This document shows, in pieces, positions 26,733 to 61,929 of a stretch of DNA of 64,000 bases. A program made the position numbers and the translations under genes. The stretch lies in contig NW_026515678.1 in assembly GCF_025526975.1 (NCBI RefSeq), positions 620,001-684,000 of the forward strand, read 5' to 3'. Source of the DNA: Fimicolochytrium jonesii (taxonomy: Eukaryota). The notes beneath the pieces are model-generated. The model saw nothing but the letters and a program-made list of their open reading frames with translations, was not told the DNA's origin and searched no databases. Each line of letters starts with the position of its first letter. Position 1 is the stretch's first letter.

Positions 26733-29700
26733 TTACTGCCGCTCATGTTGAAACATGTCCATTCCATATACACCTGATGGCCGCGCATTTCCCACATTCT
26801 GCTGTTGTTGCGCGGCAGTAGCCGGCCCCGACGCTGCTTCCGGCGCGTTCGGATCGCGGATGGGAGTCCTCGAGTCAACGCCTGGTGGGGCCTGGACGGT
26901 GACTGGCAAGGCGAACTCGTGATGTTGGGGGTAACCTGCCCCTGGGTAAGGTGGATGCACGTGGCGGTCGTAGTAGTGGGGTGGGAGACGGGGAGAGGGT
27001 TGTTGGGACTGCTGCTGTTGCAGCGATGGTTGGTTGTGATGGTGTTGTGCTTGTTGCTGTGGGTGGATATGTTGCGTCTGCTGCTGTTGTTGCTGCTGGG
27101 AGGCCTCAAGATGCTGTTTCGGTATATGGTGTTGTTCCTGCTGTGGTTGTGGTTGCTGATGACTTGGCGATGCTCGGGCTTGCTGGGTACCTGGAGTGGC
27201 GGGGTTCGAAACCTATTATAGTGTGGAGACGCCATGTCAGTCATCTGTTGAAAACGAGGGAGCAGCCCATCGACATGCTCATCTTACCTGCGAACCCTGC
27301 CTTTGTTGTTGGCTTTCCATAGATCTGATATTCGGCGCAATCAGTTCGCTGAGACTAAACCCATTGGGATAGTACGACGAACGAGAGCCATGGGTGCCCG
27401 GCCCGCCGAACGGGTTCGGTGGCTGATGCTGATGCTGTGCTTGTACGTACTGCTGTTGACTAACATGTCCCGCGCTCAGAGCTGCAGTTTCGTTAGCATC
27501 AGGATGCTGGTGTTGCTGTTGTGATGGGTGATGGTGCGCTTGTGGGTGTGCATGTTGTTGTGACGGATCGAAGCGATGATCTAAATGGTGCGGATGTGGT
27601 TGATGTTGGTAAGGGTGGGGGTGCGACGGTTGCCGGTCCTGCATGTGTCCTGGCGCATGGTACATGTTCGGATCATGGGCATGACCTCCATATCCCACCG
27701 GCGGCCCGCTCCACGATTGATGCGGTATCGGGTGCTGCATTCCTGCAGGTGCCGGCCACGTTACCGGTTTGGTGTCCGGGGTCGCTGTGTCTGGAGGAGG
27801 AACGCGGTACCTAGGCGTGGGCGCCGTCCCAGGCAATTGCTCGCTCGACGACGGGGTCTCTGCAGCGACCGAATCCTCTTTGGCCCTCGCCTTTGTCTTG
27901 TCGCGTGGAGTAGCGCTAGTAGCTTTAGCAGCGGCGGCCCTAGCAGCAGCCACAACGGCCTTCGTGGCCTCCTCCTTTGCGATCAAGACCCGTTTCCGAC
28001 GCTTGCGCCCGTCCTCAGGTGCCACCCAATTGGTATTCACGGTGTATAATCCATTTGGGCCTCGGATGAGCCGTCCACGGTCAACAGCTTTCTTCAATGA
28101 TTGAGAGGCAGAGGGGCGGAAGTGCTCAGGCAGATCCGGGATGTTATCGGCCATCCATTGGAAGATGTTTTTCGGCTTGGATCCAGTGCGGTCCCGCATT
28201 TCCCCTACCGCCAGAGTGATCATATCTTCGTAACTACCGAGTGCACTTGTCATTCGCGGCCGTGTTTGTCTCGAGATTCCGCTGATGCTGCCCGCCCCGC
28301 TTCCCACCGCCGGCGATGTTGGCGTTGACCCGGATCGTGATCGCACTCGGGGCGTGCCCAGTGGTTCGCCAGTAGCACCAGGGCCGCATGTGGATATCCG
28401 GGTACTTTGACTGTTTGTCTCATCGAGTAGTACAGCAGGGGCAACCACCGAACGAGGACGCGCCGAAAAAGCGAGCATATCACTCGGCTTCAAATCCTGT
28501 GGGTTTTGCCCAAGATACCGAGCCGTCTCCGGGTAGCGCAAGGCTACTTGCAAAAGAACTACACTCAGTACATTATGAGGACAACGCTGTAGTGACGCGT
28601 ACATCTAAAACGTCAAAAACAGACCAGCGAGGTGAGGTGAGCATTCCGTGTTTGCGGCAACATCGAATGCAATGTCAATGACGTACATTTTGGAATCCCC
28701 TTGAGCATGACGAGCATGTTTTCCGCAGAAGAATCTTCACGACATCCGACGTGGTCTCGGGCATCTTGAGAACGGAACCTTGCTGACCTTCCAGACCCAT
28801 TCCCGATCCCGCTACGTCCATTTCCGGGGCGTCGAGCCTGTTCTCTTGCAGGGGTGTGAGACAGGTCAGGCACCGCCGGATATCGCTCGGAATTACCGGT
28901 GCCACCCATCCCGGCTCCTTAAGACGAGGTATATCTGCACGCCTTGGCTTATTGGGGCGACCCACAGGCTTCGTGGGATCAAATGGAGGAGCGAACGACC
29001 AATGAGCATCCACTACAGGTACGACGTTTTCCACCATCCTTCGCGCAGTGTCCGTTCCCTCACACTGGTGGCAAAACCAATACGCAGAGTACGTGTCCGC
29101 GATGTCGTTTGGAATAGGTAGCGGGGTATGACACATTTGGTGATAGGGCGCATCGCAGCCGTCGCAGATGACAATGCGGTCCTCCACGTTAGATTCTGCA
29201 CCCGCGCATACGCTGCAAAAAACGTTGGCATCCAGAGCGAGCGGGCTGCAGAAGTGTGACCGTCGTCCAACCACGTTCATCACGTCGCTACCGCCGCCGA
29301 GCTGGTGCCCCGCATCTGTTGGTGCTGGCGAGACGCGACTTTCCCTACCGCTCGATCCCTCCTCCACTTTGACAGAGGGTTCACTCGGTGGACCGTGATC
29401 CTCATTGCCGTCCTCCATGCCATCGACATATCCTCCGCCCTGCGGTCCTTCGTGGCCAGACTCCCCAGCGTTTGCATGAGGGTGCCCTATTTCAGGTATC
29501 TCGAAAGCCCCATCTGTAACTTCTCCCGGCGTCTCGACAGCGCCATTGTGATTCCCTTCGGCATGTCCGGCCTCTTGAAGCACCTCGGTAGCTGAGACCT
29601 GAGAGTTTAAGGTCATGTAAGCTTCGAACTCCCATTGAAATGGCTTTAGCCTCCCTCCAAACTTGCTACTTGCGCCAAAACTCCTACCTTTGCCGAATAG

Positions 29701-36802: not shown

Positions 36803-36993
36803 TGTAATGTGGGTTGTCCGGTCTAGTTGGAGAACCACATGTCTGTGAGACAGGCCTCGCAGAATATACCTGCATATCCCAGCGGATATACTGGGCTACA
36901 CGTCTCGAGAGTGTTCTCCAGTGGACTCCAGCCTCACGGGTGCTTTAACAGTGCTCGTCGCACGTTCCTATTCACAAGAAGGACCTCCTTTAC
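36803..36993 (+). repeat. Partial extra LTR of the element A family, directly upstream of the A 5' LTR
   Basis: Starts TGTAATGTGGGTTGTCCGGTCT like 36994 and shares GTGTTCTCCAGTGG...CTTTAACAGTGCTCGTCG. Confidence 0.7.
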
Positions 36994-39017
36994 TGTAATG
37001 TGGGTTGTCCGGTCTTATTGGAGAAGGACGCGTCAGTGAAAGACCTATCGCTGTCTAGGTGGAAGGCCTTCTGGCCCGTCAGTGAAAGGCCTTCCAGTCA
37101 GTGTTCTCCAGTGGCCTCCGACCTCGTGGGTACTTTAACAGTGCTCGTCGTGCGTTCCTATGCACAAAAAGTAGTTCTTCTACTGCATATCGAATAGCAG
37201 CGCCGATGAACACCCAGTCCGTCTACAATACCTTACAGCAAAGTAGTGATTGTATACGAACATCAGTTATACAACCCATGTGGAAGGTAGTCCACAGCAC
37301 ATGGTAGCACCACTCGTTTCGACCAAAAACGAGCTTCATAGTAGATAAACATGTCGGCAACTTCAGCATATCGAAATTGCGGACGTAGCAATCGTCACAG
37401 AACGTCGATACAACCCTTCTAGATGATTCAAATAGCCTTCAGGACATCCAGGACAACGTCCACCGTAACTCCTGAAGCCCCTAGTGCGCTATAGTCGAAA
37501 AGCGCCGACCTATAGGTTATTTACCTAGTAGAACAACCGATACATCGCAACCACCTTGCTTTTTGCACCTGGATGGTTCAACAAACCTCCGTAACTCACA
37601 GTTTGCCATCCATACCTTACTCTTCCGGTATATCGACCCCTTGAGAGTATACGTTCAACGGTCGACACGTTACCACATAAACGCGTTTTTACGAGTAGCC
37701 AATTGGTAAACCGTTCACGGATCGGAAATCTACCCCAGTAATTCGATCCCTTCAAAGGAATTTGATCTACGGATACGGAGATATAAAAAACGTACAAAAT
37801 CGTCGCCATTATAACCTCTGTATAGCAAAACTATTGCAGTTTTGACCAAAACATTCTCCGATGAGGTTCTGCCCGGTCTTGAGAATTACCTTCAGTTACA
37901 CTGAACATTACGGGATGTTTGATTCATCACAAAACAAGTAATCAGTCATCGCCTTCGTCAAGAATTCGATACTTAAGCGAAAACCGGCGGATAGGAAAAG
38001 GCTCTCAGTTTTGAGACAGCGCTGAGCCGTTAGGGTTCCTCTTGATCCTCTCAAAGGTCTCTTTGAACTAATAGCTTCAGATCCTGCACAGGATCAATGC
38101 AGCCAAAACCCGCCGACATCGGACACGGTGGATTTTGGGGATTTTTCGCTCGAAAGAGGGAGAATCTATGCCCGAATTTTGGTTATTGCATACGGCATAT
38201 ACCTGATTTGACACCTAGTTGTTTGTGTGTATTTGCTCAAGGTACTGAGCTATACAACATCAATGGAGTACTTCTGTCTGCATTCTGGAAGTATTCGTCG
38301 TTGTTTGAGGTTATTCGAACTGAAAACGCGATTACGCTGGCCAGAAGGGCGTTATGAGTACATCAATGGGTAGTACAGTTACCAGGAGGGAGGAAACTAC
38401 TCCTGGGGGTACAGCTGTTATTACTGAGATCGTTGAGGAGCTGGGAACTTTGGTTGATGTAATAATGCTAGGTCCGTTGCCAGAGGCTAGCTCTGTCTCC
38501 GCTCGATGTATTGAAAGAATTCTAGGGTTTCTACCTCCCGGGGCGCCGCCCAAAGGCTTTTCTTCCCTTCGGGAGTCACCCCAGAGCGTAGGACTCCAAT
38601 ATAATCTATTCTACGCGTGATCTCATGCCCTACGCGCTTCCCCGCACTAAGGTGACACCTGCAGCACCTCATTACACCCCCCTTAGAGCCAAGTGTCACT
38701 CCGACACCGACCGCACCTGTCAGTCGCTCCCCGCTGTTACTTGATGTGGAGCTGACACAGGTATCGGCCATGAGGAGTGCGCATGGCTCTACTGGAGCGG
38801 CTGGCGTCACCGGTGGTCACCACGATGGCAATCAGATCCACGCTGATATGAGGTAGAGATGATTCGGCCGCAACTGGTCGTGGGGCGCTATGGTCCTTGT
38901 CTCTGCGGCATATAAAAGGAAGGCAGTAGTCCCCTTGGCACCGTCCCGCCAGTCCTCGGACTTACATTTCTTGCTCCCAATCTCGTAACCTCTCACCGTC
39001 GCCGTTCACCTCTCACC

Positions 39018-39402
39018 ATGGCCAGCGTAGCTCCTCCTGCCAAGGCCACCGCCGCCGGCCCGTCATCGGGCAAGAAGAAAGTAGGCGAGGGTCCCACCAA
39101 AGGGGACAGCCTGAAGAAGGCTCTCAAGCGACAGCGAGTGGTGAGTCCACGGAGGGCGCCCAATTGACCGAACTTTCGTGGTTTGACCAATTTTATCTCA
39201 GGACACCCCCGAGGTGCACTCGGACAGTACCCCGGAGCCCCCGGCTCCACCGGCCCGACCTACGTGTTGGAACTGCAACAGGTACCGCCCCCGCAAGATG
39301 TTCCTCTCGGCGTGCCAGCACGTTATATGCCGGCCTTGCATCCTTTCGCTCTGTGACGACACCGTAAGGAACCGCATGTTATGGGTGGTTCCCGTGAGGT
39401 GA
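39018..39402 (+). CDS. Antisense, intron-containing RING-finger (C3HC4-like) gene inside element B, 3'-truncated
   Basis: TATAAAA at 38911, ATG at 39018, exon 1 to 39140 (41 codons), intron 39141-39201 (GTGAGT...TTTTATCTCAG, phase 0). Exon 2 encodes CWNC-x12-CQHVICRPC. Second donor GTAAGG at 39364 with branch-like ACTGAC at ~39402. Confidence 0.7.
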
Positions 39403-42400
39403 CTGACAGCTCACGTCTCTTCCCGACGCTCGGAGTCTGTGCTGAACGATGCGGCTCACCTCGGTCAGTTGCTGCATGCGCTCCTCAATGCACTTTCGAT
39501 CGGCCTGTTTCAGTTGCTCTGTTGGGTCGCTGGTACCCCATTGGTCTGGTACCTTCGGGATGTACCCGATGTCGATCTCGTATGGGGACATGCCCGTGGA
39601 GGTCTGGGGCGTCCTGTTGTAGTTGTACTCGAGGAGGGGAAGCATCTCGCGCCAGTTCAAGCTGGTGTAGTTCAGGTAGGGGACCATCATCTTCTTGATT
39701 GTCTTGATGACGTTCTCCGTCTTGCCGTCGGTCTGTTGGTGTCGTGCCGACGAAATTCCTGCTCTACCCTGGCGCACTTCAGGAGGTGCTTCCAAAAGGC
39801 GCCTGTCCATTTGGTGTCGTGATCGCTGATGATCGTGTGGGGCATGCCTGTGATGCGGAAAGCCTGGTCGAAGAACAGCTGGGCGAGTTCCTGTGCCGTT
39901 GCCTTGGCGTGGGTCTCGAGGAGGATTACGCGGCTGGATAAGTAGTCCACCAGGATGAGGACGGCTCCCTTGTCCATGACGGACTTGTCTCCCGCTTCCC
40001 CCCCCTTAGAGTTCGTCGTGGGGAAGTAGATGTCCAAGTCGACGCAACGCCAGCGCTTGTTGGGGACCGGAATGCTGCGTAGGAGCCCGAAGTTGGAAGC
40101 CTGCTTGTTGCGTTGGCAGTCGGGACAAGTCCGGACGTACTGGTGGACCTTGCGCTCGAGGCGGGGCCAGTAGTAGAGCGCGAGGAGTTTGGCGACGGTG
40201 CGCTGGACACCCGAGTGGCCGCCGTTGGCCAGGGAGTCATGATAGAACCTTAGGAGGGGGCCCCGAAGGCCCTCGGGGATGTAGCGGCGGCCATGGTACA
40301 AAAGGAAGCCGCGGTCGTCGCGCGTGAGGCGGCGGGCAAAACCCGAGAGGGTAGAGGGGTTATCGGGGTTCGTTGCAGTGGTCTGCAGGTGGGCGAGGGT
40401 GTCCTTGCAGAACTTGTCATCGTCGAGCGCAGTGAGCCACTCGGCGTCGGTAGGAAGGCGGCTGGTGATGTCCGGTAGGGGTGTCCCGGTGACAATGGAG
40501 AACACTTCGACCTTCATCTGACAGCTGGCGCACTTCGGGGCGTACAGCAGTGTGCGGCTGAGTATGTCGGCGATGTGATTGAACTCGCCGGGGAGGTATT
40601 CGATCGTGAAGTCGTAGTCCTGAAGGAACTCCACCCATCCGGCCTGGCGCCGGGAGAGATGAGGCTGATTCTGGAGGTATATGAGGGATTCGTGGTCAAC
40701 GAATGCACGGAATTGGCGACCGATGAGGTAATGGCGGTTAGCGCGGATCACTTTGACCAATGTGAGGAGCTCCTGTTCATGCACGAGGTATCGGGTTTCG
40801 GCCGGAGCCATCTTGCGTGAGTAATATGAGATGACGCGGAGGCGCGGAAGGTTATTGAGGCCCTTTTTCGTGGTGGGCAGTGGGTTCGGCATGGGGAAGT
40901 CGCCGTCCGTGCCCTGACCGATCCAGGCCCCTACGGCGAAGCCCGACGCGTCAGAGAAGACGTAGGGAAACTTATCGGGGTCAAAGAACGCCAGGCAAGG
41001 GGCATCGGCGACGCGCGCCTTGATGGTGTCGAATGCTGCTTGTTCCTCAGCGGCCCGCTGTCACGGGCGGGTGGCGGATTGAAAGTTGGTCAGTGGGAGG
41101 GCTGTGTCAGCATAATGCGGAATGTATTCCTTGACATAGTTGACTAGCCCCATGAAGGAGAGGATTTCGAGGGCGCTGGTGGGTTCGGGTCGAGCGCGGA
41201 CAGCCTCGACCTTGGACGGGGCAATGGAAAGGCAGTCCTTACCGACCATGTGCCCGCAGAACTCAACCTGGTCCACTGCCCACTGACATTTGGACGGTTT
41301 CACGTGGAGGCGGTGAGCCGAGAGGGTCTTGAGCACTTTGGTGACATGCCCGATGTGTGAGTCCATGTCGGGGCTGAAAATAAGGATGTCATCAAGGTAA
41401 GAGATGAGGTATGAATCATACTTGTCGCCCAGGAGTTTGTTCGTGAGGCGTTGGAACGTCGCAGGCGCGTTCGTCAGCCCGAAGGGTAATACGTTGTACT
41501 GGAAGTGGCCGAAGCGCGTCCGGAAGGCAGTCATCTCACGGTCTTCCTCCCAAATGAGGATGCAGTGGTAGGCATCGCGGATGTCGATAGCGGTGAAGAC
41601 CTTCATGCCGACGAGGCGGTCCCGAAGCTCATTGAGGTTTGGGAGGGGCGTGGCGTCCTTATGGGTCATCTTGTTGAGGGCCCGGTAGTCGATGCAGCAG
41701 CGGAGGCCATCGTCCTTCTTCGGGGCAAACAGCACGGGTGCCCCCCAGGGGCTCTTAGAATGGGAGATCCACCCGCGGGGTGATAGGCGCTCGAGTTGGC
41801 GCCGTAGCTCGTCGAGTTCATCGGGGGCCAAGTGGCGGAGTGGGAGCATGACAGGCTTGGAGCCAGGCTTCAGATGGATGCTGAAGTTGTTGTCGCCGCG
41901 GTCTGGCGGGAGGCCGGTCTGTTCGGTGAAGAGGGTATCTGTAAACTGTTCCAACGTGGGGCGAAGAGGGTGGTCAGCGGCGACCGACCCGAGTGGATCC
42001 TCCGGGGTGGTATCCGGAGTGGCCGTTGCCTTTCCGTCCGCAAGGATCGCACGTTTCTTCGCCTTGACCGTGCGAACGAAGTTAGCCTCGGCTTCGGCGA
42101 CGTCCGCGAGGGCGTCGTCTGTGGCCAGGTCCACCTCCGCGTCCGTGCGTGAGACTCATGCGGTATAGACCTCGGTGGTCTTATCCCTCTTGATTGCTCG
42201 CTTGAATTGTTTGGCCGTGAGGAAGCCCTCCTCATTTAAGGCCGCCCGCTTTGGGTAGAAACGGCGAGGGCGAGGGCCTGTATGAGGTTTGAGTAACCGG
42301 GCCGCGCAAGTGCTGGGTTGTTGCCATTGGCGGGTGGTAGGTTTAGCTCGGAAAGTTAGTACGGTTGCGTTAGCCTCGAATTGAAGCGCCGGGAACCCAT

Positions 42401-42857
42401 TGTCGCGCCATAAGCGTATGAGGTCAAGGTCCAGGATGTAGGGTATCCCTAGGATAACATCCGGGCGGATCGGGGCCACGACGAACGGGACCCAAGGGGT
42501 CTTAAGAGGTATTCGTTCCTCCGTGAAGACGGAGAGGTTGGCACAAATCATCCACGTGGCGCCGTATGATCCGGCTTTCTCACCCTAGCGCACCTCAAGG
42601 GGCGTGGGACAGTCGTACGTGTTAAGATCATGGCGTTGGGGGAGTGAGTCGCTGATGAGCATGGTATTGCAACCAGTGTCTATGAGGATGGGGCAGAAGA
42701 TGCTGCCGACACGTCCATGGACCATGAACGTGTGCTTGTCGATGACGGGCCCGGGGCGGTATTCCGGAATGGTGTCCTGCAGTCGGGGTCCGGTAGGTCC
42801 CTCGGGTTGTCTGGACGCTGAGGCGCTGCAGGCGGTCAGGCCCTGGGGAGGAAATCC
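39379..42857 (-). pseudogene. pol: Element B pol (protease, RT, RNase H, integrase) with premature stops/frameshift and truncated integrase C-terminus
   Basis: ILIDTGC protease; CIDYRALN, LPFGLTNAPATFQ, YLDDILIFS; SDASG, EQELL, VDHESL; HHCC zinc finger and DDE core. Stops near 42585, 42156 and 41061. Confidence 0.93.
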
Positions 42858-44335
42858 TGACTGTCGACGGAGTATGCGGGGCTCGGGGGCTCCTCCGCGG
42901 CCGAATGGAACTCGTCGTTGTCATCATCGAAGGCCTCGGCGGGCGCTGCCAAGATCTTGAGTCGGTCTGGGTTCTTAGGGCACGCTCGGGCGTAGTGGTC
43001 CTTGCTGCCGCAAGTGTGACATACGCCTCGCTGAGTTTTCCGCTCCTTCCCGAGGGGTACTCGGTTGGAGTTGAAGGTGCGGGGCGTATCACGCTTGTTG
43101 CGAGCCTGGGCCAGAGTGGTCGTAGCGGGTTGGACCCGTTTGCCGTCTTCCGAAATGCGGGCGATCCCGTCGGCATAACCCCTGATGCGGAAGGCCCTCT
43201 GGGCGGCTTCCTGAAGGGTCTTGATGGGGATGTCTTCGTCCTCACTGCCCTGTTGTAGGATGAACTGGTAACACTGCTCACGGATGCGACGTCCGACCTG
43301 GTGGAAGGTCAGCCCGTTCAGGAAGTACTCACGTTCCTGTCGCGGCGTGAGATGTTCCTTTTCGGGGAGGATAGCGATCTGTGTGGTCAGTGCGTTGAAG
43401 GCCAAGACGTAGTTGGACATGCTGTCTTTGAACTTCAGGGCGGCCAGTTTCGCCTCGACCGAATTACGGAGGTTGGCGGGGTAGAACCTGCGCCTGAGCG
43501 CCTTCAGGAACCGTTCCCGGGTGGCGGGAGGCTCTCCGGAGCGAGCCTCGAGCTTCCACCACTCAGCGGCGTCTCCCGACAAGTGGGCTACGAAGTGTTT
43601 CACGTCCCCGTCCTCCGTTCTGAATTCGGTGGCTTCCAGATAGCGTAGGTGGGCGTCGACGAACTCGTCCAGTTTGGCGACCATGTCTTTACCGTTAGCC
43701 TTACCGTCGAACTTGGTCAGCATCTTAGCCAAGGTGGTTCGGAACTCCTTCTCGGCGGCCGCCTTGCGCTTACGCTCTTCGCTAGCCGCCAACTGGTCCT
43801 CGCGGTTAACTCGTACTCCAGCGAAGGGGCTGTCATCTGGGCGGTCCCTCTCCAGGTGCTCGAATTGCTGCTGGAGTTGGGCGTCGGTGTTGGCCAGCTG
43901 GGCTAGGATTTGGAGGATTGTTGCCTGTCCGTTCTCTTGTCGGGCTGGGGAACGGCTCCTGCGCCGCATGGGGGAGCGGCTTCGGGTCCTCGCCGGGGAC
44001 CGGCTGCGCCAGCAGCTTGCTGAGCGGCTCCTTCGACGGGGTGGGGAGTTGCTCCTGCAACCTGGCGTCCGATTCTGGCGTCGGGCGTCCGGGCTTCGAC
44101 GTCGACCAGGTGAGCGTGAGCGGGAGTGCCTCCTTCCACGTGGCGACCACGGGGGTGACCCCCTGCGCCTGTGGAAGGGGCGGTTACGCCCTGCGGGGCC
44201 GTTGCCTTGGCGTTGGTCGCCGTCGAGCTGTTGCGCCCTTCGATGCGGGTGTTCAAATAAATCAAGCTCTAAGCAGTCATTGTTGACTATCGCATAGCTG
44301 ACGGCGGTATTAGCACCCGCCTGAGAGTTGCTCAT
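42836..44335 (-). CDS. gag: Element B Gag (499 aa, open) with RS/SP-rich N-terminus and CCHC knuckle
   Basis: HLSGDAAEWW capsid-type motif, CHTCGSKDHYARAC knuckle, RSRSP repeats. Confidence 0.9.
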   Translation of the reverse strand: MSNSQAGANTAVSYAIVNNDCLELDLFEHPHRRAQQLDGDQRQGNGPAGRNRPFHRRRGSPPWSPRGRRHSRSRSPGRRRSPDARRQNRTPGCRSNSPPRRRSRSASCWRSRSPARTRSRSPMRRRSRSPARQENGQATILQILAQLANTDAQLQQQFEHLERDRPDDSPFAGVRVNREDQLAASEERKRKAAAEKEFRTTLAKMLTKFDGKANGKDMVAKLDEFVDAHLRYLEATEFRTEDGDVKHFVAHLSGDAAEWWKLEARSGEPPATRERFLKALRRRFYPANLRNSVEAKLAALKFKDSMSNYVLAFNALTTQIAILPEKEHLTPRQEREYFLNGLTFHQVGRRIREQCYQFILQQGSEDEDIPIKTLQEAAQRAFRIRGYADGIARISEDGKRVQPATTTLAQARNKRDTPRTFNSNRVPLGKERKTQRGVCHTCGSKDHYARACPKNPDRLKILAAPAEAFDDDNDEFHSAAEEPPSPAYSVDSQDFLPRA

Positions 44336-44598
44336 CGTAGGTTGCCGGAGAGATCTTGAAGGGTGGTGCTACCATGTAATCATGCTAGGTCCGTTGCCAG
44401 AGGCTAGCTCTGTCTCCGCTCGACGTATTGAAAGGTTTCTAGGGTCTCTACCTCCCGGGGCGCCGCCCGAAAGCTTTTCTTCCCTTTGGGAGTCACCCCA
44501 GAGCGTAGGACTCCAATATAATCTATGCTACACGTGATCTCATGCCCTACGCGCTTCCCCGCACTAAGGTGACACCTGCAGCACCTCATTACAGTTGA

Positions 44599-45784
44599 CG
44601 AACCTCGTGTTGAAGTTCGTCTTCCTCCTCGAACAATGGGACCTGTTCCAATGGAAAGTATCCAGGTCGGTGGACCTCCTCCACCTGCTCCTGGCCACCC
44701 GCCCGCTACGGCTATGTTGACGATCTCCCTCGAGGAGCTCAACGCCCAAATTAATGCTGCGGCGGCTGCCGCCCGAGCAGAAGTTCGCGATCATCATGCC
44801 GAGGAGCATCAGGTTCAACAGGATCGCTTGCGGGCTACGTTGGAGCGCAACTCTGCAATGCGCCGTGATGGCCTGCTGCAGGATGGGTCAGTGGATCCGT
44901 TCTATATTGAGCAGCGTAGGCACCATGCTACATGGATCTTGCAGCATCCGTTGAATGGCAAAAGGAGCGAGGCTGCTGTTGTCGACACATTCTTGCAGAA
45001 GCATATGGACTTCATGCTTACTTTTGGTCTTCTGATTGATGACTTTAAGTATAGCGAGAAGGTATCTGGCTCGCTTGAAGGCGACACACGTACCTGGTTC
45101 GATACCGCATGCCAACTTGACATGCGGAAAGAGGATTTTGAAATGGCTTTCCAATTAGCCTTTTATCCTACAAACGCGAAAACCAACGCGCTCAATGCTC
45201 TGCATCGAATGACTTTCCATAAGTCGATGGATTTGTATGTGACGGAGTTCAAACGTATTGTTGCCGAGGCACAGCACAACCTGGAGGTTATCACTCCTGA
45301 CGATTTGAATAACCTGTTTCTTCGCGGGCTTACCCGCGATGAGACCATTACCGTCGGCTACAAGATCGCCCAGTCGTTGTTGCATACAATGGTCGATTAT
45401 AGGAAGCAACACCCTATATTCACATATCCTCCGATTCGTTCGATGGATTGTGCGCTTAGTTCCTTTGCTGTGTGGCGTCTCGCCGATAAGGGAACCGATG
45501 CGAACGATAAAGCGGTTGCTTCTGGTAGTAGTGCGCCTAAACATGCCAATGTCTCTTCTGCCGTGGGTACTGCGGGCAAGAAGGGGGCGAAAGCTAAGAA
45601 GGCAGAAGCTGGTAAACCTTACGCATGCCTGGACCTCTCGAACATGAAGTGTTTGGATTGTGGCAAGATGGGTCATTGTGCAGAGATTGCCCTGAAAAGA
45701 AGAAGGATAAGAACTCCGATGAGGCTAAGGATAAGCCGCATTAGAATGCTGGTCAGAAGAAGGGTTTTCAGTAGAAACGTTTAA
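44599..45784 (+). pseudogene. gag: Element A gag, 3' part; frameshifted in the zinc knuckle
   Basis: LEGDTRTWF, YVTEF, LFLRGL. CLDCGKMGHCA(R)DC is restored by a 1-nt insertion near 45682. Confidence 0.85.
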
Positions 45785-49339: not shown

Positions 49340-52300
49340 GTTGGCTCAATGGTTGCGTATATTGAGATAGCATCAAGATGCGGCACTTGGAAGGCTCTGC
49401 AAAACTTAGGACGCGTCTGGAAAGGCTCTGAAGATGTCTGGAACGTCTACCAGACATCCAGGCATCAGAGCTGCGCTTTCATGATGTTCTTAGAGCTCAT
49501 AGCGATCAGTTGTGACTGTATGGACCAGTGATCGAGTTGTAGCAGCTATATTGCGTTTGATTGAGCTTGTGGTAGCCTGTAGCACCCTGCGCGGGCTCCT
49601 CGGACTTGGCAGAAGCCCTGTGGCGTCAGCAGGTAGATCATGGGGTACACAGACTTGGTAAAACCTTACAAACCTTCCCAACAATAACTACGACACTCAG
49701 AGGCGCCCTGAGCGTTCCGAGAGGGTCTCAGAGGGTGCTTTGGACGCCCCAGCACATAGCTAGATCCCCAGGAAAGAAGCTCCAGAATCCTATAAAAGGC
49801 AGACGTGTTGCCCATCCCCTCCCTTCACCTTATCCCCCTTTAATACACATCATTCTCTCGCACTATTCCAGCTACAGTACTGTCCTCCACATCAGAACAC
49901 TGCCCTTGGAGCGTCCACGTCTCTCAGTCATTGGTGAATTAGTCTTGGTGACCTCTCAGATACTCCTCTATCGGCTAAGGTTTCAATAGATTATGAGCCC
50001 TGAGCTTTATCATCACTAAAACCGTCTTTGCCAATCCTCCGATTCTGCCCCCTTTCCCTTCAACGGGCTTGCTGTAGCCGTATCTCCTTCCTTCTCCTTC
50101 TTCCCAGCTCTCATTGCCACCCAAAGTCCCTTCGCCTTCAACATCATCATCATCCTAAACTTCCGTAGATGGTAGTTCTCCCCCGTGAACTTGTCCATCA
50201 TAAGTTTCGAAGTCTCCGAGTCTCCAGCCATCGTGTGTTCAAGCTAAATTTGTCTGTTTTGGGTGTGTGGACACATTTTGGATGATGGTGTATCTTTGGA
50301 CATGTTTTGGGTGTCAAGTAGTGCGTATCTCGTCGAGTTCAGCACTTTGGCGCGTTTTCGGTCGAAAATTGGTGATTTTGGAAGGATATATCGAGGATAG
50401 AGCGTAAGTAGCGACCGTGGGGGGTTGGGAACAAGGACGAGAGGGCTTTGGCATACATCTGCCTCAGTCTGAACGACACTCAGCTTATGCACGTGCATGC
50501 AGCTCAGACGGCTTGCGAAGCCTGGTCTAAGCTAGCTGAGGTGCACAAACGAAAGGGGCTTGCCAGCAGGCTCTTCCTATGTCGAAAGTTCCTTACTATC
50601 ACTATGGACAAGTCTGACTCGATCACAAATCACATCAACAAAGTTAGACAGCTTGCACAACAGCTGGAGGCTATCGGCGCACCAGTACCCGAAGACGATA
50701 TCATGATGACCTTCATTTACAGCTTACCAAACAGCTATGAACAAGTCATCACGAGCCTCAAAAGCAGGGCAGACGACTTAGACATGGAGTTCTTGACGGC
50801 CAGACTTCTGAATGAAGAAGCTAGGCGCAAGGAGAACTCGAAACCAGTCAGATCGACTGGAAACGCCTTCGTTGGGGACGGGGGACACCAGCAGGAGGCT
50901 GGGGGTTCAGCCAGGTTCGCCAGGAAGAAGGGAAAGTGCCATCACTGTGGTATTGAAGGGCACTGGAGGAACGAGTGCAAGAAGCTCAAACGAGAGCTAG
51001 CTCAAGCCAACAATGCGAATCAAGCCAAACCACACCAGGCCAGCCAGGGAACCGGGTTCCTCTTCATGGCAGCTATGAAACGCACGGAAATCAGCCCAGG
51101 GTGCTGGATTATCGCCTCAGGAGCCTCCTCACACATGACACACGTCAGGGAATGGCTCCAGGACTACAAGACGCTGGAAACTGAGATACAAGTCCAGCTA
51201 GCTGATAACCGCTCAGTCCTAGCCATTGGAACAGGCTCCATCTCGATTAGAACACAACGGGAGCACGCTGGCACCCTTCGAAACGTCTGGTTTGTTCCCA
51301 AACTGGAAAAGAACCTCATCTCAGTAGCCCAGCTGACTGAGAACGGAGCACAAGTCGAGTTTTCGAGTGCAGAATGCACAATCAAGACCAGGGACGGCGC
51401 TCTCGCCTTCAGAGCTCTCAAGGACAATGGCCTGTACACCATGACAGCCCAGGCTTCCCCTGAACACGCCTACTCAGCAGGAGCACTTCGTAGCACACCC
51501 TTCCATATCTGGCATCAGTGAGTCGGTCATCTGAATGCCCAAGATGTCCAGAAGCTCACCAACGGCTACCAACGTGATATCACAGTCACCGGACATCCTG
51601 ATGGTCACATCTGCAAAGTTTGCACGCTCTCAAAGCAGTCCAGAGCTCCCTTCCCGAAGAAAGCTACCCGAGCCACAGATGTCCTGGCACTCGTCCACAC
51701 TGACCTCTGTGGCCCCATGAGGACGTCTACCTTGGGGGGATGTACTTACTTCGCATCATGGATTGATGACAAGTCCAGAATTGTCTGGGTCAAGCTCCTA
51801 CGCAAGAAAAGCGATACCTTTGATGCATGGGAGGAATACAAGGCACCTATGGAGAAACAGACTGGGAGATGCATCAAAGTCCTCAGATCAGACAAAGGAG
51901 ACGAATCCCTCCAGTTCGCCCTCGCACTCAGAAAGGCTGGAATCCAACATCAGCGCGCTGCTACCGACACCCCACAGCAGAACGGAGTAGCGGAACGTAT
52001 GAATCGAACTCTAGTCGAAACGGCACGCTGCCTACTCACCCAGGCTGGTCATGGACACGAGTACTGGAGAGAAGCGCTGCTTGCAGCTGTCCACATTAGA
52101 AATCGCTGCCCTACGGTTGCCCTAGACAACTCCAAGACGCCATACGAAGCCTTCTTCGGTAGCAAACCCATCCTCCTTCATCTCAGAGTGTTTGGATGCA
52201 TGGCCTATACTATGGTACTCAAGAAAAACCAAGGAAAACTGGACAACAAAGCCAAGAAGTGCCTCTTTCTCGGCTATAGCTCTTCCAGCAAAGCCTGGAG

Positions 52301-53765
52301 GCTCCAGTCACTCGAACCCGATGATCAGGGCGCCATTATCGAATCAAGAGATGTCCAGTTCAATGAAAACAAGCTCTACAGCAGCCTGGACAACGAAGAT
52401 ACACATGAAGACACGTCAGATCGCTCCTATGACAGCTTAGCTAGCTTTGAATTCGATCCTGAGCCTGACAACATCGTTTCACACGCACCCAAGCCCACAG
52501 ACACCACCGAATTACGCCCGCACGCTGCAGGGGGGGATTCTGAGCTCCCTGACGCATCTCCCAACCCACAACCTGACACTGATCAATGGGCAGAGACCCC
52601 AGAGGACCTACACGACCAGGAAGACCAGGAAGATGAAGATTTGGTGCATTACGGACGCATCACACGCTCCCAGAGCACCCGAGTACGCCAAAGCAACCTT
52701 GCCTATGCCCTGGCTACCGAAATACTGCACACAGAGCCCAAAACCCTCAAGCAAGCTCTAAACTCCAACGACTCAGCCAAGTGGAAGGAAGCCATGGATG
52801 CTGAATACGCATCCGTTGTCAAGAACGGCACCTGGGAGCTGTGTCCAGCACCCAAAGATCGCAACCTTGTCAGCTGCAAGTGGATTTACAAGATCAAGAC
52901 AAATGCTGATGGCAGTATCGAACGCTACAAGGCCAGACTAGTCGCCCAAGGCTTCTCACAAGAAGAGGGAGTTGACTACAACGAAACATTCGCACCAGTG
53001 GCCAAGTTCGACACCATTCGGCTACTCCTGTCGTGGGGAGCAGCTCAGGACCTCGAAATGGACCAAATGGACGTGTCCACCGCATTCCTGAACCCGACAC
53101 TTAGTGAGGAGATCTATATGAAGCAGCCTCCGGGCTACATCAAGCCAGGAGAAGAGCATCTCGTGCTTAAACTCAAGAAGACTCTCTATGGTCTTAAACA
53201 AGCCGCCAGGGAATGGAACATCGAAATCCACGGCACTCTCGTTGAGAAAGGCTTCACTCGTCTTGATTCAGACCATTGCGTCTATATCAGGTTCTTTGAG
53301 GGCTGGCTACTCATCCTGATTCTCTATGTGGACGACCTCATACTTATGAGCAACGAGAGACTCGATCTTCACAGCTTCAAGGCCAAGGAACTTCAGAAGG
53401 CGTACAAAATGCGTGATCTAGGTGCCCTGCACTACTTCCTGGGTCTCCTAGTCACTCGAGACCGAGCCAAACGACTCCTGACGCTCAACCAGACTGGGTA
53501 CATCGAAAAATGCCTTGAAACATACGGGATGACCGATTGCAAGCCTGTATGAACTCCCAGCGTCGTGGGAAGCCCTCTCGCCAAGGAAATGGCACCTCAA
53601 ACGCCTGAAGAGACTGCAGCGATGCAGAACAAGCTCTATCGAGCCATTGTAGGCAGTCTGATCTACGCAATGATCGGCACAAGACCAGACATAACCCAAG
53701 GAGTTGGAGCTGCGAACCAGTTCTTAGCCATCTCAGTCATTGGCAAATTAGTCTTAGTGACCTTG
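49340..53765 (+). mobile_element. Ty1/copia element, defective: 5' LTR, internally inverted gag start, gag-pol truncated before RNase H
   Basis: LTR ends at 49988 (its 5' boundary is uncertain, ~49.13-49.53 kb). PBS GATTATGAGCCC at 49989-50000. CHHCGIEGHWRNEC knuckle, WIIASGASSHM (protease Asp lost), integrase PQQNGVAERMNRTL, RT RYKARLVAQG, QMDVSTAFLN, LYGLKQA, LYVDDL. Integrase precedes RT. Confidence 0.93.
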
Positions 53766-56129: not shown

Positions 56130-57953
56130 TGTAATTTGGAGTGTCCGGTCTTATTGGAGACGATGCGACATGTCTGCGAGACATGTCTCGCCAGGTGTGC
56201 GAGACATGTCCCAGACAGTGTTCTCCAGTGGATTCGAGGTTTTAATTCCTTTAATGCCTCACTGGAGCGTGTTCTCCAGTGGACTCTGACCTCATGGGTA
56301 CTTTAACAGTGCTCGTCGCTCGTTCTTATGCACAACAAGTAGTTCTTCTACTACAGATCGCATAGCAGAGCCGACGAACACCCAGTCCGTCTACAATACC
56401 TTACAGCAAAGTAGTTATTGTATACAAACATCAGTTAAACAACCCGTGTGGAAGGTAGTCCACATCACATGGTAGCACCACTCGTTCGAACAAAACGAGC
56501 TTCCTAGTAGATAAACACGTTGGCAACTTCAGCAACTCGAAATTGCGGACGTAGCAATCGTCATAGAACGTCGATACAACACTTCTAGACGATTCAACTA
56601 GCCTTCAGGACGTCCAGGACAACGTCCACCGCAACTCCTGAAGCCCCTAGTGCGCTATAGTCGAAAAGCGCCCACCTATAGGTTAATTACCTAGTAGGAC
56701 GACCGATACGTCGCAACCACCTTGCTTTTCGCACCTGGATGGTTAAACAAACCTCCGTAACTCACAGTTTGCCATCCATACCTTACTCTTTCGGTATATC
56801 AACATCTTGAGAATATACGTTCGACGGTCAACACGTAGTCGACATAAACGCGTGTTTACTAGGGGCCAATCAGTAACCCGTTCACGGATCGGAAATCTAC
56901 CCCAGTAATTCGATCCACTTCCAACTCGGCAAGCTCGTAGAGCACACTGAGCTTGAAGACTTGTGAAAGTTTCAGAGAGCTTCGACCTACGGATACAGAG
57001 ATATCGAAAAACGCGCTAAATCGTCGCCACAATAACCTCCGTGTAGCAAAACTATCACAGTTTTGACCGAAACGACCCCCGATAAGGTTCTTCCCGATCT
57101 AGAGAGATAACCTTGAATTTACCTGAACGTTTTGTGATTTTTGAATCACTGCAAAACGAGTTATCCGTCATCGCCGTCGTCGTTAATTTGATACTTAAGC
57201 GAAAACGGGCGAATAGAAAAAGTCTTTCAGTTTTGGGACAGAGCTAAGTCGTTAGGGTTCTTCTTGATCCTCTCAAAGGCCTATTTAAACTGATAGTTTC
57301 AGATCCTGTCTAGGATCAATGTAGCCAAAACCCGCCGACATCGGACACGGTGGATTTTGGGGATTTTTCGCTCAAAAAGAGGCAAAATCTATGCCCGAAT
57401 TTTGGTTATTGCATACGGCATATACCTGATTCGAAACCTAGTTGTTTGTGTGTATTTGCTCGAGGTACTGAGCTATACAACATCAACGGAGTACTTCTGT
57501 CCGCATTCTGGACGTAGTCGTCGTTGTTTGAGGTTATTCGACTTGAAAACGAGATGACACTGGCCAGAAGGTCGTCATGAGTACATCAACGGGTAGTACA
57601 GTTACTAGGAGTGAGGAAACTACTCCTGGGGGTACAGCTGTTATTACTGAGATCGTTGAGGAGCCGGAGACTTCAGTTGACGAACCTCGTTTTGAAGTTT
57701 GCCTTCCTCCTCGAAGGACGGGCCCTGTCCAATGGAGGGTATCCAGGTTGGTGGACCTCCTCCACCTCCTGCTGGTACCCCGCCCGCTATGGCTATGTTG
57801 ACGCTCTCCATCGAGGAGTTCAATGCCCGAATTAATGCTGCTCGAGCAGAAGTTTGCGATCAACATGCCGAGGAACATCAGGATCGACAGGATCGTTTTC
57901 GAGCTACGTTGGAGCGTGACTCCGCAATGCGCCGTGATGTGCTGCAGGATGGG
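56130..57953 (+). mobile_element. Second copy of element A (LTR 56130-56469, PBS at 56470, leader, gag start), cut by element C
   Basis: High similarity to 36994-38457 joined to 44599-44888. Shows the empty site ...GTTGACGAACC where B inserted in copy 1. Confidence 0.9.
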
Positions 57954-60900
57954 TGTAACGTCAGAGGAAATGTAGACGATATTGGGCCCTTCTGAGAGGG
58001 CTGAGAGCAGTGTATTGTAGTGAAGAAAAAGTAAGAAGCTTTTCGCAGCGGCCGCTCGACTGACAGCTTTATATATGGGCTGCCAGTGGGGCTTGCGTGC
58101 CTTCAGTGAGGCTTGGCGCCTTATGTAATGTATCACCGAGAGCTCGGGTGGCCAGCCCGGGTCTCGGATCAAGTTGAAGTAAAGAGATATAATATGAAAT
58201 ACAAGTGAAGATGAGATATCCCCGACACCTCCCTCAGATCCTGAGGAGGGCGCCAAATAAATAAGAGCTGAACTACAAGGGATATGTGAAGAAAGGGAGG
58301 GCTCATGTTCATTTTAAAGTGTTGACGCACTTGTTCATTTTATAGTGTTGACGCACTGTGTGATGTGTGATGTGTGTATTTGAGGCAAAGGCGTCCCTAA
58401 GCCGACGTCGTGTGTGATGTGTGTGTGTAAGGTCGGTTCTTGCGTCGCCGCGCGTGATGTGATGTAGTTTACGTCGCTATTGTCAGCGGTGTGATTGATA
58501 GTGAGCGGTTCTTGAGGCGTCATGCGTGTGATGTGATATCAGATGCTCTATGCTGTTCATCTCCGTATCCACAAAGATTGTGGATGAGCTTTTCGCCATC
58601 GTTTGTAGGCAGGCGTGTAGCGAAGTGCGGATTTGGGTTCCCAAGTAGGGTCAGGATAACCGAGCCATTTGACTAGTAGATTTCGCCAGGCGCGTCGCTT
58701 GTCGATAATATCTTCTACAACTCATTCACGTTGTCCGCGTTCTCGATTGGTGGAGGAGGTTGTGGGACTGCACGTTGCGGATATTGCTCTTCGCGATGTG
58801 GTCGTAAAATATCGACATGAAAGACGGGCCAGATGCCACTGATCTTCGATGGTAATAAATCGAGTTCGTAGGTATCAGGGTGTGCTCCCAGTGCGATGAT
58901 TTTGAATGGTCCGATCCACATAGTTGAGTATCGAAGTCCTCTTCGTGTGTCTACTTCTAGGTTGATTCCTTGTCGGTTCAGATCGACGAGGTCGCCAATT
59001 TTGTATGCGAATGGCGTTCGACCTTTGTTGTGTTGACGTGCGAATTGATCTTGCGATCTCTGAAGGTTTTTGCGTACGATACGGGCGATGTCTTCCTGCC
59101 CTTTCTTGAAGAGTTCGAGTTCGTTTTGATCTACAGCTCGAAGCTTCAGTTCTTGTCCCTCAAGCGTCGGGATCCAACCCGGTACGATTGGAGAGCGTCC
59201 TGGATCTACTTCAAATGGCGATAAACCCTCATATTCCTCTCTCGGAGCAGTATTGGATGCAAATTTGACTGGGGGTAATAGCTTAACCCAATGGGTTTTG
59301 TCGTAATTGAGGTATTGCCTCCAAATCCTTTTCAGGGTTTGGATGGCTCGCTCAACTTTGCCGTCAGTTTGCTGATGACGAGCCGTAGCGAATTCGTGTT
59401 TTACACCGAGGAGAATATCGAATGCGAGGAAGAAGTCGGAAAGTGCGCAAGGTTCGCGATCCGTAATGAAGACTTTTGGCGTACCGACATGTTTTCAAAC
59501 ATGATCTAGGAACACTTGGGCTAGTTCTTGTCCAGTGATTGTCTTCTTGATCGGTGTCATAATCACACGTCCGGAAAGGTAATCAATGCAGACGAGAGAA
59601 GAGTTTGTTTCATCTACGGTGAAAATGTCGAATCCAATCATATGCCATCTTCCAAAAGGTATAGGAAGAGGTCAAAGAAATCCGTATCGACGATGACCAG
59701 GTTTGAATTGTCGACAGGATTTGCAAGTTCCAACGTATTTGATGACGTCGGAGCGTACGGTAGGCCAGTAATAGTCTGTAAGAATTCTCGCGAGAGTCTT
59801 CTTAACACCGGGATGTCCTCCGGTGGCGAGTTTGTCATGGAATTTCCGTAAAATCTTCGGGCAAATGTCTTCAGGAACGTATAGACGTCCTTTGTGTTGT
59901 ACTAATCCATTTTCGTACGTATAACGGAGTTGTTTTGAAGTTTTCTTGTGTTGGGGCTTTCGAGAAATTTCATCGAGATAATCCGAATATGGATCTTCGC
60001 GTAGCCCTTTTTTCCATTCTTCTTCTGAGCAAGTAGGTGAGTTTTGTGGATCGTCTGTTGTAGCGTTGGAGGAAGGTTCGTTGACAAGCATATTGCTGAT
60101 CTGCATGTCGAGGCGTCATTGACAATCTACACACCAAGGCGCATAGATTGGATTGCGGGAGAGCGTGTCGGCGATATGATTCCATCGTCCAGGTAAATAC
60201 TGGATGTCGAAATCATACTCTTGTAGCTTCTCCACCCAATTGGCTTGTCTTCTGCTCAAATGGGGTTGCGTTTGGATGAATTCGAGTCCCTTGTGATAGC
60301 TAAAACGTCGGAAGTAACGACCGATGAGATATGGTCGATTGGCGACCAACATCTTGACAAGAGCTAAAAGCTCCTGTTTGTGCGTAGGATATCGAGTTTC
60401 TGCGTCCTTCATCTTTCTAGAAAAGAAGACCACAGGCCGGAGCCGAGGTAACTTCTTCCATTGCGGGACGAGAGTAGGCAGATTTGTAGGGATCGTTTCA
60501 TCGCCAGAAGGTTGTCCAATCCAGCCAGCGATAGCGTAGCCTGATGAGTCGGTATAGACGTAAATCGGCTTGGTTTCATCGATTGTTGCTAGCGTAGGTG
60601 CATTGATCAACGCTTCTTTCAACTTTTGAAATGCCTCTTGTTGCTCAGGACCCCATCGAAATTTGACTTTCGAAGATTGAATACTTGATAGGGGCAGAGC
60701 AATGTCCGAATAACCTTGTACAAAGTCGAGGAAGTAGTTCGTGAACCGGAGAAAGCTCTAAACTCCTTTTGTTGACTTTGGAGTAGCCCATTCCTTGATA
60801 GCTTGGATTTTCAAGGGCGCGATGCGAACACCATGTCTTCCGACAATATGTCCACACCGTTCGAGTTCTTCTTTAGCCCATACGCACTTTGAAGGTTTGA

Positions 60901-61929
60901 TGAAAAGGGCGTATTCTTCAAGTTTCTTCAGGATACGATCGACGTGTTCTCGATGTTCGGCTAAGGTCTTCGAGAAAATGAAAATGTCGTCCAGGTAGGT
61001 AGCGAGGAATTCGTCGTAATCTTTATGGAAGATCTTATTCATAGGACATTGAAATGCAGCAGGAGCGTTGGTAAGCCTGAACGGCATGACCGAATACTTC
61101 AAATGTCCGAAGCGAGTTCGTATTGCTGTTTTTTCTCGATCTTGTTTTCGTATAAGAAGACGATGGTATGCTTCTCAAATATCGATAAGCGTAAACCATT
61201 TACAACCTTGAATCCGATCCCTCATCTCACAAATATTGGGTGAAGGAGTGCGATCTTTCTTGGTGACGGCGTTGAGACCTCAGTAGTCCCAACAGATGCA
61301 TAATCCGCCATCTTTCTTTTTCGCAAAGACGACACTAGCTCCACAGGGACTTGAGGAGTGTTGTATCCATCCTTTTTCGAGCATCAAGGTGACTTGTTTC
61401 TTGAGTTCAGCGAGTTCTTCTTTGTTCATGTGAGTTCGATCTTGAAATTATCTTCTCCGCGATCAGGGGGTAGACCTTCAGGTTCCTTGAAGAGCGTATT
61501 GACGTATTTATTTTTGACATCCTTGAGATGTCCTGGATTTCCTTTAAGCTCTTGAGGAGCGTCCGGTATTTTTTTAAGAGCGAGACGACAGACCGTGTCT
61601 TTTTCAAACTTGTTCCGTCGCCAAGCCTTATTGAATCGCTTAGAAGTCATTTCTATGACTTGAGGATTGCGAAGGGCATTGGCTTGAGCGAATCGAGATA
61701 CATAATGAGGTGCGGCTTGTAGAGGACAAGTATCCACAGGTGTAATGATCCGAACAGGTCGAACGGGTCTTTTGTCATAGACCGGATCTCGTTGTACATC
61801 GAAGTAAGGGTTGTTGTGTTTCGGGATGTCTTCGACGTCTTCCCAGTTTGTTGAAGTTCTTTCGCACTTGATGGTGACAGACTGCAGTGCGTTTGGTATA
61901 GGGCCGTAATTGGTCCAGCAAAGGATAGG
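57954..61929 (-). mobile_element. Ty3/gypsy chromovirus element C: 3' LTR 57954-58227 and degenerate pol, interrupted by element D
   Basis: On the minus strand the LTR reads TGTCGGG...CGTTACA, is preceded by PPT GAGGGAGG and contains TATATAAA. Chromodomain LLVKWLGYPDPTWEP, WIGPF, HHCC, TDSSG, YLDDIFIFS. Many stops. Confidence 0.9.

Follow-up and report, generated by a model that had tools for sequence, protein, structure and literature searches.

An antisense RING-finger gene, truncated within a decayed Ty3/gypsy retrotransposon of Fimicolochytrium jonesii, has relatives in Powellomyces hirtus and in a polinton-like virus record

How does a spliced gene for a RING-finger protein come to lie backwards inside a retrotransposon, and to whom does it belong? 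The question is raised by a 64,000-nt stretch of the Fimicolochytrium jonesii genome (contig NW_026515678.1; the whole stretch is called the window hereafter). Here an intron-containing gene occupies the plus strand, antisense to pol, between pol and the 3' long terminal repeat (LTR) of a decayed Ty3/gypsy element, element B. Judged from sequence comparison, the antisense RING gene is real, and only its 5' half is preserved. We consider it, with a probability of roughly 60%, to be a native antisense accessory gene of a chytrid element family, in the layout known from brtn and gene23, which one deletion would have cut in this copy.

The gene has the following parts, in window coordinates:

38911..38917, plus strand: TATAAAA, predicted promoter, 107 nt upstream of the ATG
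39018..39140, plus strand: exon 1, starting with the ATG at 39018; 41 codons, with 8 Lys and 2 Arg
39141..39201, plus strand: intron 1, 61 nt, phase 0, GT-AG (GTGAGT...TTGAC...TCAG)
39202..39363, plus strand: exon 2, 54 codons, RING-HC ligands 1-6
39364..39424, plus strand: intron 2, donor GTAAGG at 39364, branch-like CTGAC at 39403 and a pyrimidine tract; no normal acceptor

The original prediction had described a TATAAAA, an ATG, a Lys-rich exon, a 61-nt phase-0 GT-AG intron and a Cys/His exon antisense in element B; all of these are present, and the junction it gave, 39140/39202, is exact in the sequence. TATAAAA occurs six times over both strands of the window, including the copy at 38911. 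The C-terminal half of exon 1 is basic and forms a predicted nuclear localisation signal, the branch A of intron 1 lies 15 nt upstream of the intron end, and exon 2 encodes the motif C-x2-C-x12-C-x-H-x2-C-x2-C. Intron 2 is cut near its 3' end and runs into integrase sequence at about 39424, and the window holds no trace of an exon 3. Cryptic acceptors past the break (39435 and 39468) lead into the antisense integrase frame, which offers no Cys pair. With intron 2 retained, this copy would encode no more than 107 residues, carrying six of the eight ligands, so the antisense gene is probably dead here.

Relatives of exon 2 are few and closely defined. A phmmer search against 1.84 billion representative proteins returned six matches, three of them true relatives (E=4e-10 to 1.5e-8); the others (P0123, P0127 and P0128) were set aside, since their sequences marked them as artefacts of repeats or proline-rich stretches. 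The relatives are hypothetical proteins of Powellomyces hirtus and the 'oncoid' DAC81638.1 (P0124) of Powellomyces chytrid fungus MELD virus 1, a polinton-like virus with a record of 21,205 nt. A profile search that scored 7,994 candidates recovered these three clusters alone, and when longer proteins were searched by words with exon 2, none of 31 candidates was upheld. Exon 2 is identical to the relatives at 27-28 of 51-52 residues (52-54%), exon 1 is weakly similar (6-10 of 37), and both window intron positions, each in phase 0, coincide with joins in the P. hirtus gene models. Relatives at these E-values with matching intron positions bear out the central claim of the original prediction, an intron-containing RING-finger gene antisense to pol. 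The P. hirtus genes are multi-copy, with five accessions on four contigs (KAI8911323, KAI8903067, KAI8921334/5 and KAI8904226), two of which (KAI8921334/5) are adjacent and identical; other copies are nearly so (167/178 and 99/107). A partial P. hirtus copy, P0129 (KAI8903067.1), lies on a contig of 7,022 nt, close to the 7.0-7.2 kb estimated for an undeleted B-type element, which may be coincidence; the estimate adds to the 6,136 nt present 525 nt of integrase tail, 261 nt or more of coding exons, and introns.

The viral protein is a true homologue of the antisense gene, with 27/51 identical residues in exon 2 and both intron positions in common. It is annotated as a single open reading frame (ORF) that carries 25-codon inserts at both intron positions, each starting with Val and ending with Gln. 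These inserts would be in-frame GT...CAG introns read through, and the deposited 'oncoid' appears to be the unspliced read-through of a spliced gene, complete through a second repeat where the window copy is truncated. DAC81638.1 stops where the P. hirtus relatives go on, which would fit a third intron. Oncoids are defined by an LxCxE-type Rb (retinoblastoma protein)-binding motif next to paired CXXC (PMC8502044). We found no LxCx[ED] motif in the window exons or in P0124, P0125, P0126 or P0130. Because the protein lacks LxCxE, the 'oncoid' label does not seem to fit, and a spliced tandem-RING gene looks the better reading.

The full-length relatives are proteins of about 180 residues. Their N-terminus is basic, their C3HC4-type RING is complete, and they have a further RING-like repeat, C-x4-C-x11-C-x-H-x2-C-x2-H, after which the P. 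hirtus proteins show an extra C-x5-C pair. Of the eight RING-HC ligands the window copy has only 1-6, while P0124, P0125 and P0130 have all eight; the final Cys pair, whose presence in full-length copies had been proposed as a check, is C-x4-C. The family shares with RING-HC (C3HC4) domains the ligand spacing, a predicted central helix and, in full-length relatives, the C-x4-C final loop; unlike them, it scores below the curated cut-offs. Pfam zf-RING_5 matches the window copy at E=1.6e-4 and 22 bits against a cut-off of 27.9, and the relatives at 17.5-23 bits. Whether the search is by sequence, language model or fold, most rows are RING entries: the Atlas lists C3HC4 clusters at 0.90, and the 50 structural rows for the full-length model are almost all described as RING/U-box domains or ubiquitin/SUMO ligase complexes, at low scores. 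With the full-length protein, the Atlas rows incline towards RING1 domains of RBR type (0.82-0.87) and serve as leads only. No IBR or catalytic RING2 domain was matched by Pfam, and a protein of 178 aa is likely too short for an RBR ligase (RING1-IBR-RING2).

The element that carries the gene is a decayed Ty3/gypsy LTR retrotransposon of a chromovirus clade, 6,136 nt long, at 38458-44593 on the minus strand. Its features are as follows:

44375..44593, minus strand: 5' LTR, TG...CA, 219 nt
42836..44368, minus strand: gag (capsid, CCHC knuckle), frame open
39424..42920, minus strand: pol (protease, reverse transcriptase (RT), RNase H (RH) and integrase (IN)), without SH3 and chromodomain
38677..38692, minus strand: polypurine-tract-like run ending in GGGGGG and adjoining the 3' LTR
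38458..38676, minus strand: 3' LTR, 219 nt, with 10 differences from the 5' LTR in 219 nt
38453-38457 and 44594-44598: 5-bp target-site duplication GTTGA flanking the element

Paired TG...CA LTRs, target-site duplication, primer-binding site and polypurine tract are thus all found, and the Pfam domains gag, RT, RH and IN follow one another in Ty3/gypsy order. The primer-binding site begins TGGTAGC directly after the 5' LTR and is, we take it, initiator-Met-tRNA-like. The pre-RT region aligns with pol of the relatives; the protease assigned to it is putative, being named from a motif and not from a Pfam match. Pol is damaged by three in-frame stops (42587, 42158 and 41063) and one frameshift near 39755. 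The insertion site is another repeated element, whose flanks rejoin cleanly when compared with its second copy at 56269-57954. A 91-nt repeat in three copies (36904-37185 and 56262-56352) stands at the start of this host element.

The closest named relatives of element B pol, among the 120 of 166 matches listed, come from P. hirtus, with 78-79% identity in the RT core and 59-60% over RH-IN. In a 35-row tree element B pol is sister to two P. hirtus elements (support 100/97), and in RT/RH it groups with chromodomain-bearing elements, in a clade with P0002, P0010 and P0001 (support 100/99). Judged by this kinship of the element, its host is likely a chytrid related to Powellomyces. P0001, the next branch after the P. 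hirtus sisters, is the closest full-length pol and ends in SH3 and chromodomain. Homology of element B to it ends at residue 1048 of 1223, at about 39424, so that the integrase is short by 175 residues (SH3 and chromodomain) and the chromodomain at its C-terminus is absent from this copy. The antisense gene and the integrase are cut at the same point, and one deletion explains both truncations; we infer that a single deletion removed the integrase tail together with the 3' part of the antisense gene. The original prediction had read the cut in the second intron in this way, as an apparent deletion also taking the integrase tail, and the break at about 39424 agrees with it. In some related chromoviruses the pol contains an insert between RNase H and integrase, either a Dam-type adenine methyltransferase or a SET domain; such inserts occupy residues 735-827 of P0013 and 864-963 of P0070, and SET is listed for several other matches.

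The slot occupied by the gene has precedents. Plant elements and the fungal Boty elements have additional ORFs that lie antisense in the interval from pol to 3' LTR (aORF-3R), the one in Boty being called brtn (PMC7264820); the examples include brtn of Botrytis and Sclerotinia Boty, maize Grande gene23, rice RIRE2 and Retand (PMC7264820, PMC11963269). The original prediction named antisense ORFs in plant gypsy elements and missed this fungal precedent (PMC7264820). Maize gene23 encodes a nuclear protein and has its own promoter (PMC7264820, PMC8365987). The products of antisense accessory genes resemble nothing known, which is one reason why the function of these genes in LTR retrotransposons has stayed open (PMC7264820); for Retand, TRP28, Smc and a few other domains are reported, with no RING among those named in the consulted part of PMC11963269. 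Compared by layout, the antisense RING gene lies in the same slot and orientation of a Ty3/gypsy element, its product is predicted to be nuclear, and like gene23 it is predicted to have an upstream promoter of its own. It differs from the aORF-3R genes in its tandem RING-like product, its likely chytrid host and its homologue in a DNA virus record. HBZ of HTLV-1, a spliced antisense gene for a bZIP protein, and CERV of the Caenorhabditis elegans element Cer1 are likewise extra spliced LTR-element genes for nuclear regulators, neither of them a RING. CERV shares sequence with Gag, promotes export of genomic RNA and has a predicted C4 finger (PMC10309623). No RING gene in the antisense slot between pol and 3' LTR is described in the titles and abstract openings that our literature search covered, and the main text of a fungal LTR survey (PMC3248453) contains no occurrence of 'RING', 'antisense' or 'ubiquitin'.

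That the gene is native to the element family is suggested by several observations. It is an antisense coding gene between pol and 3' LTR, with promoter, start and introns kept, and it points towards pol as the known antisense accessory genes do. The two exons have a G+C content at synonymous third codon positions (GC3s) of 0.75, against 0.72 in gag-pol of element B, 0.55 in seven host ORFs (0.71 in one of them) and 0.45-0.60 in the other window elements. Codon log-odds favour element B by +13.9 bits, more than in all 19 host blocks and within the range of 13 blocks of element B. P. hirtus has the pol family that is sister to element B, and it has several RING genes that are nearly identical to one another, the two being found in different assemblies. 

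A number of results weigh against this assignment. One host block reaches +12.9 bits against the +13.9 of the gene, and the score comprises 95 codons. No RING homologue was found in 13 distant elements with at least 700 nt past the integrase tail, nor in window elements A and C, which limits the gene to a narrow clade at most. A RING-family profile run over six frames of 78 loci and the window found only this locus; the window exon is itself in the profile, and only the absence elsewhere is informative. Scans of metagenome, viral and prokaryotic genome contigs gave no close locus of element B or the RING gene: the metagenome contigs yielded 69 loci, none above 36% identity, the four viral scans no confirmed locus, and the prokaryotic contigs nothing for the RING alignment and nine distant loci for pol; phage records gave no match. 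Only one relative has a named setting, that of a polinton-like virus; among the pol matches listed (120 of 166), none is a long B-like pol of MELD virus 1. As to the product, the RING profile scores stay below the Pfam cut-offs in window copy and relatives alike, and the six-sequence AlphaFold model of P0125 is weak, with a mean pLDDT (predicted local distance difference test) of 48, about 60-73 in the first RING (residues 51-110), and 37 in a single-sequence fold. The best structural match of the model has Z 4.0 and a root-mean-square deviation of 3.1 over 59 residues, and no Foldseek match reaches E<=0.001.

The viral relative invites the explanation that the gene is native to chytrid polinton-like (MELD) viruses, and that element B took its 5' half once, when template switching or DNA recombination put it in place of the integrase tail, without the gene ever serving the retrotransposon. 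The annotation assigns one relative out of three to Powellomyces chytrid fungus MELD virus 1, and the break coincides with the loss of an essential part of pol, just as gene capture does in transducing retroviruses. Transduced genes occur in one or few copies (PMC7264820). Such a capture would, however, need two junctions and the uptake of promoter and unspliced exons, antisense and in the usual slot of accessory genes, and the codon usage of the gene matches element B. The identical neighbours KAI8921334/5, with no viral genes numbered between them, speak weakly against it as well, and the legend of Fig. 5 in PMC8502044 names Gag and retropepsin genes in an element, so that an LTR element could be nested within the viral record. 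We regard a viral origin as possible and rather improbable.

The original prediction had left room for a captured host gene, and the length and signals of the introns are indeed host-like. That this single copy picked up part of an ordinary host RING gene in reverse orientation is nevertheless not favoured, and appears less probable again than a viral origin: no single-copy cellular orthologue was found among the 1.84 billion representatives or the three profile matches, the relatives are multi-copy P. hirtus genes or viral, and GC3s is unlike that of six of the seven host ORFs. Least of all can motif, TATA box and splice signals be put down to chance features of non-coding element DNA. The loose short-intron pattern has 35 matches in the window, and Pfam scores lie under the cut-off; against this, a six-frame reading of the window contains the six-ligand motif a single time, none of 5000 dinucleotide shuffles of the region from pol to the polypurine tract produces it, and it is absent from the 250,584 nt that 69 distant retroelement loci make up. 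The relatives and the intron positions held in common refute a chance origin, to which we assign a negligible probability.

If the gene belongs to the element family, as we favour, an intact copy would be transcribed towards pol from its own TATA promoter beside the polypurine tract. Introns lying opposite to the genomic RNA strand are not removed in retrotransposition, and those of the antisense gene would survive it, the copied genomic RNA being the other strand. The tandem-RING protein would then enter the nucleus and act as an E3 ubiquitin ligase, modifying or removing a host restriction or chromatin factor that limits the element. Most RING-HC domains recruit an E2 enzyme, and we put the chances that the product is an E3 ubiquitin ligase at about even; an anti-silencing role is a guess. 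As an alternative to a ligase, the protein may be a zinc-binding regulator of element RNA, similar to CERV. A wider scenario, in which the tandem-RING gene moved with its introns between a chytrid retrotransposon clade and polinton-like viruses, and in both would supply a counter-defence enzyme directed at silencing or antiviral factors of the host, is speculative, and we think it unlikely.

Element B is part of a nested cluster of LTR elements at 34700-64000, where it lies within the 5' region of gypsy element C. The cluster contains further gag and RT fragments, and its other elements are:

44573-45781 (gag) with pol to about 49000, plus strand: gypsy element C
50412-53552: copia element, after element C
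about 58584-61700 (pol), minus strand: gypsy element A, with SH3 and chromodomain

At 27282-29700 on the minus strand, host ORFs encode a linker-histone H1/H5 domain and, next to it, a PHD finger; they are probably one gene. Outside the window, the nine distant pol loci from prokaryotic contigs (L070-L078) represent eukaryote-type gypsy pol in contigs of bacterial genome records, mostly metagenome-assembled genomes, and are probably misbinned.

What is new here is a RING-type product in the antisense accessory slot, with an unexpected homologue recorded for a polinton-like virus; beyond the original prediction go the connection with a DNA virus, the repetition of the RING-like motif and the brtn precedent. 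As the window copy is broken, the value lies in the gene family rather than in this locus. A product of RING type hints at an enzyme activity open to assay and at a host target to seek. The viral homologue may reflect gene traffic between retroelements and DNA viruses, or a nested element mislabelled 'oncoid', and either outcome would correct or extend the existing annotation.

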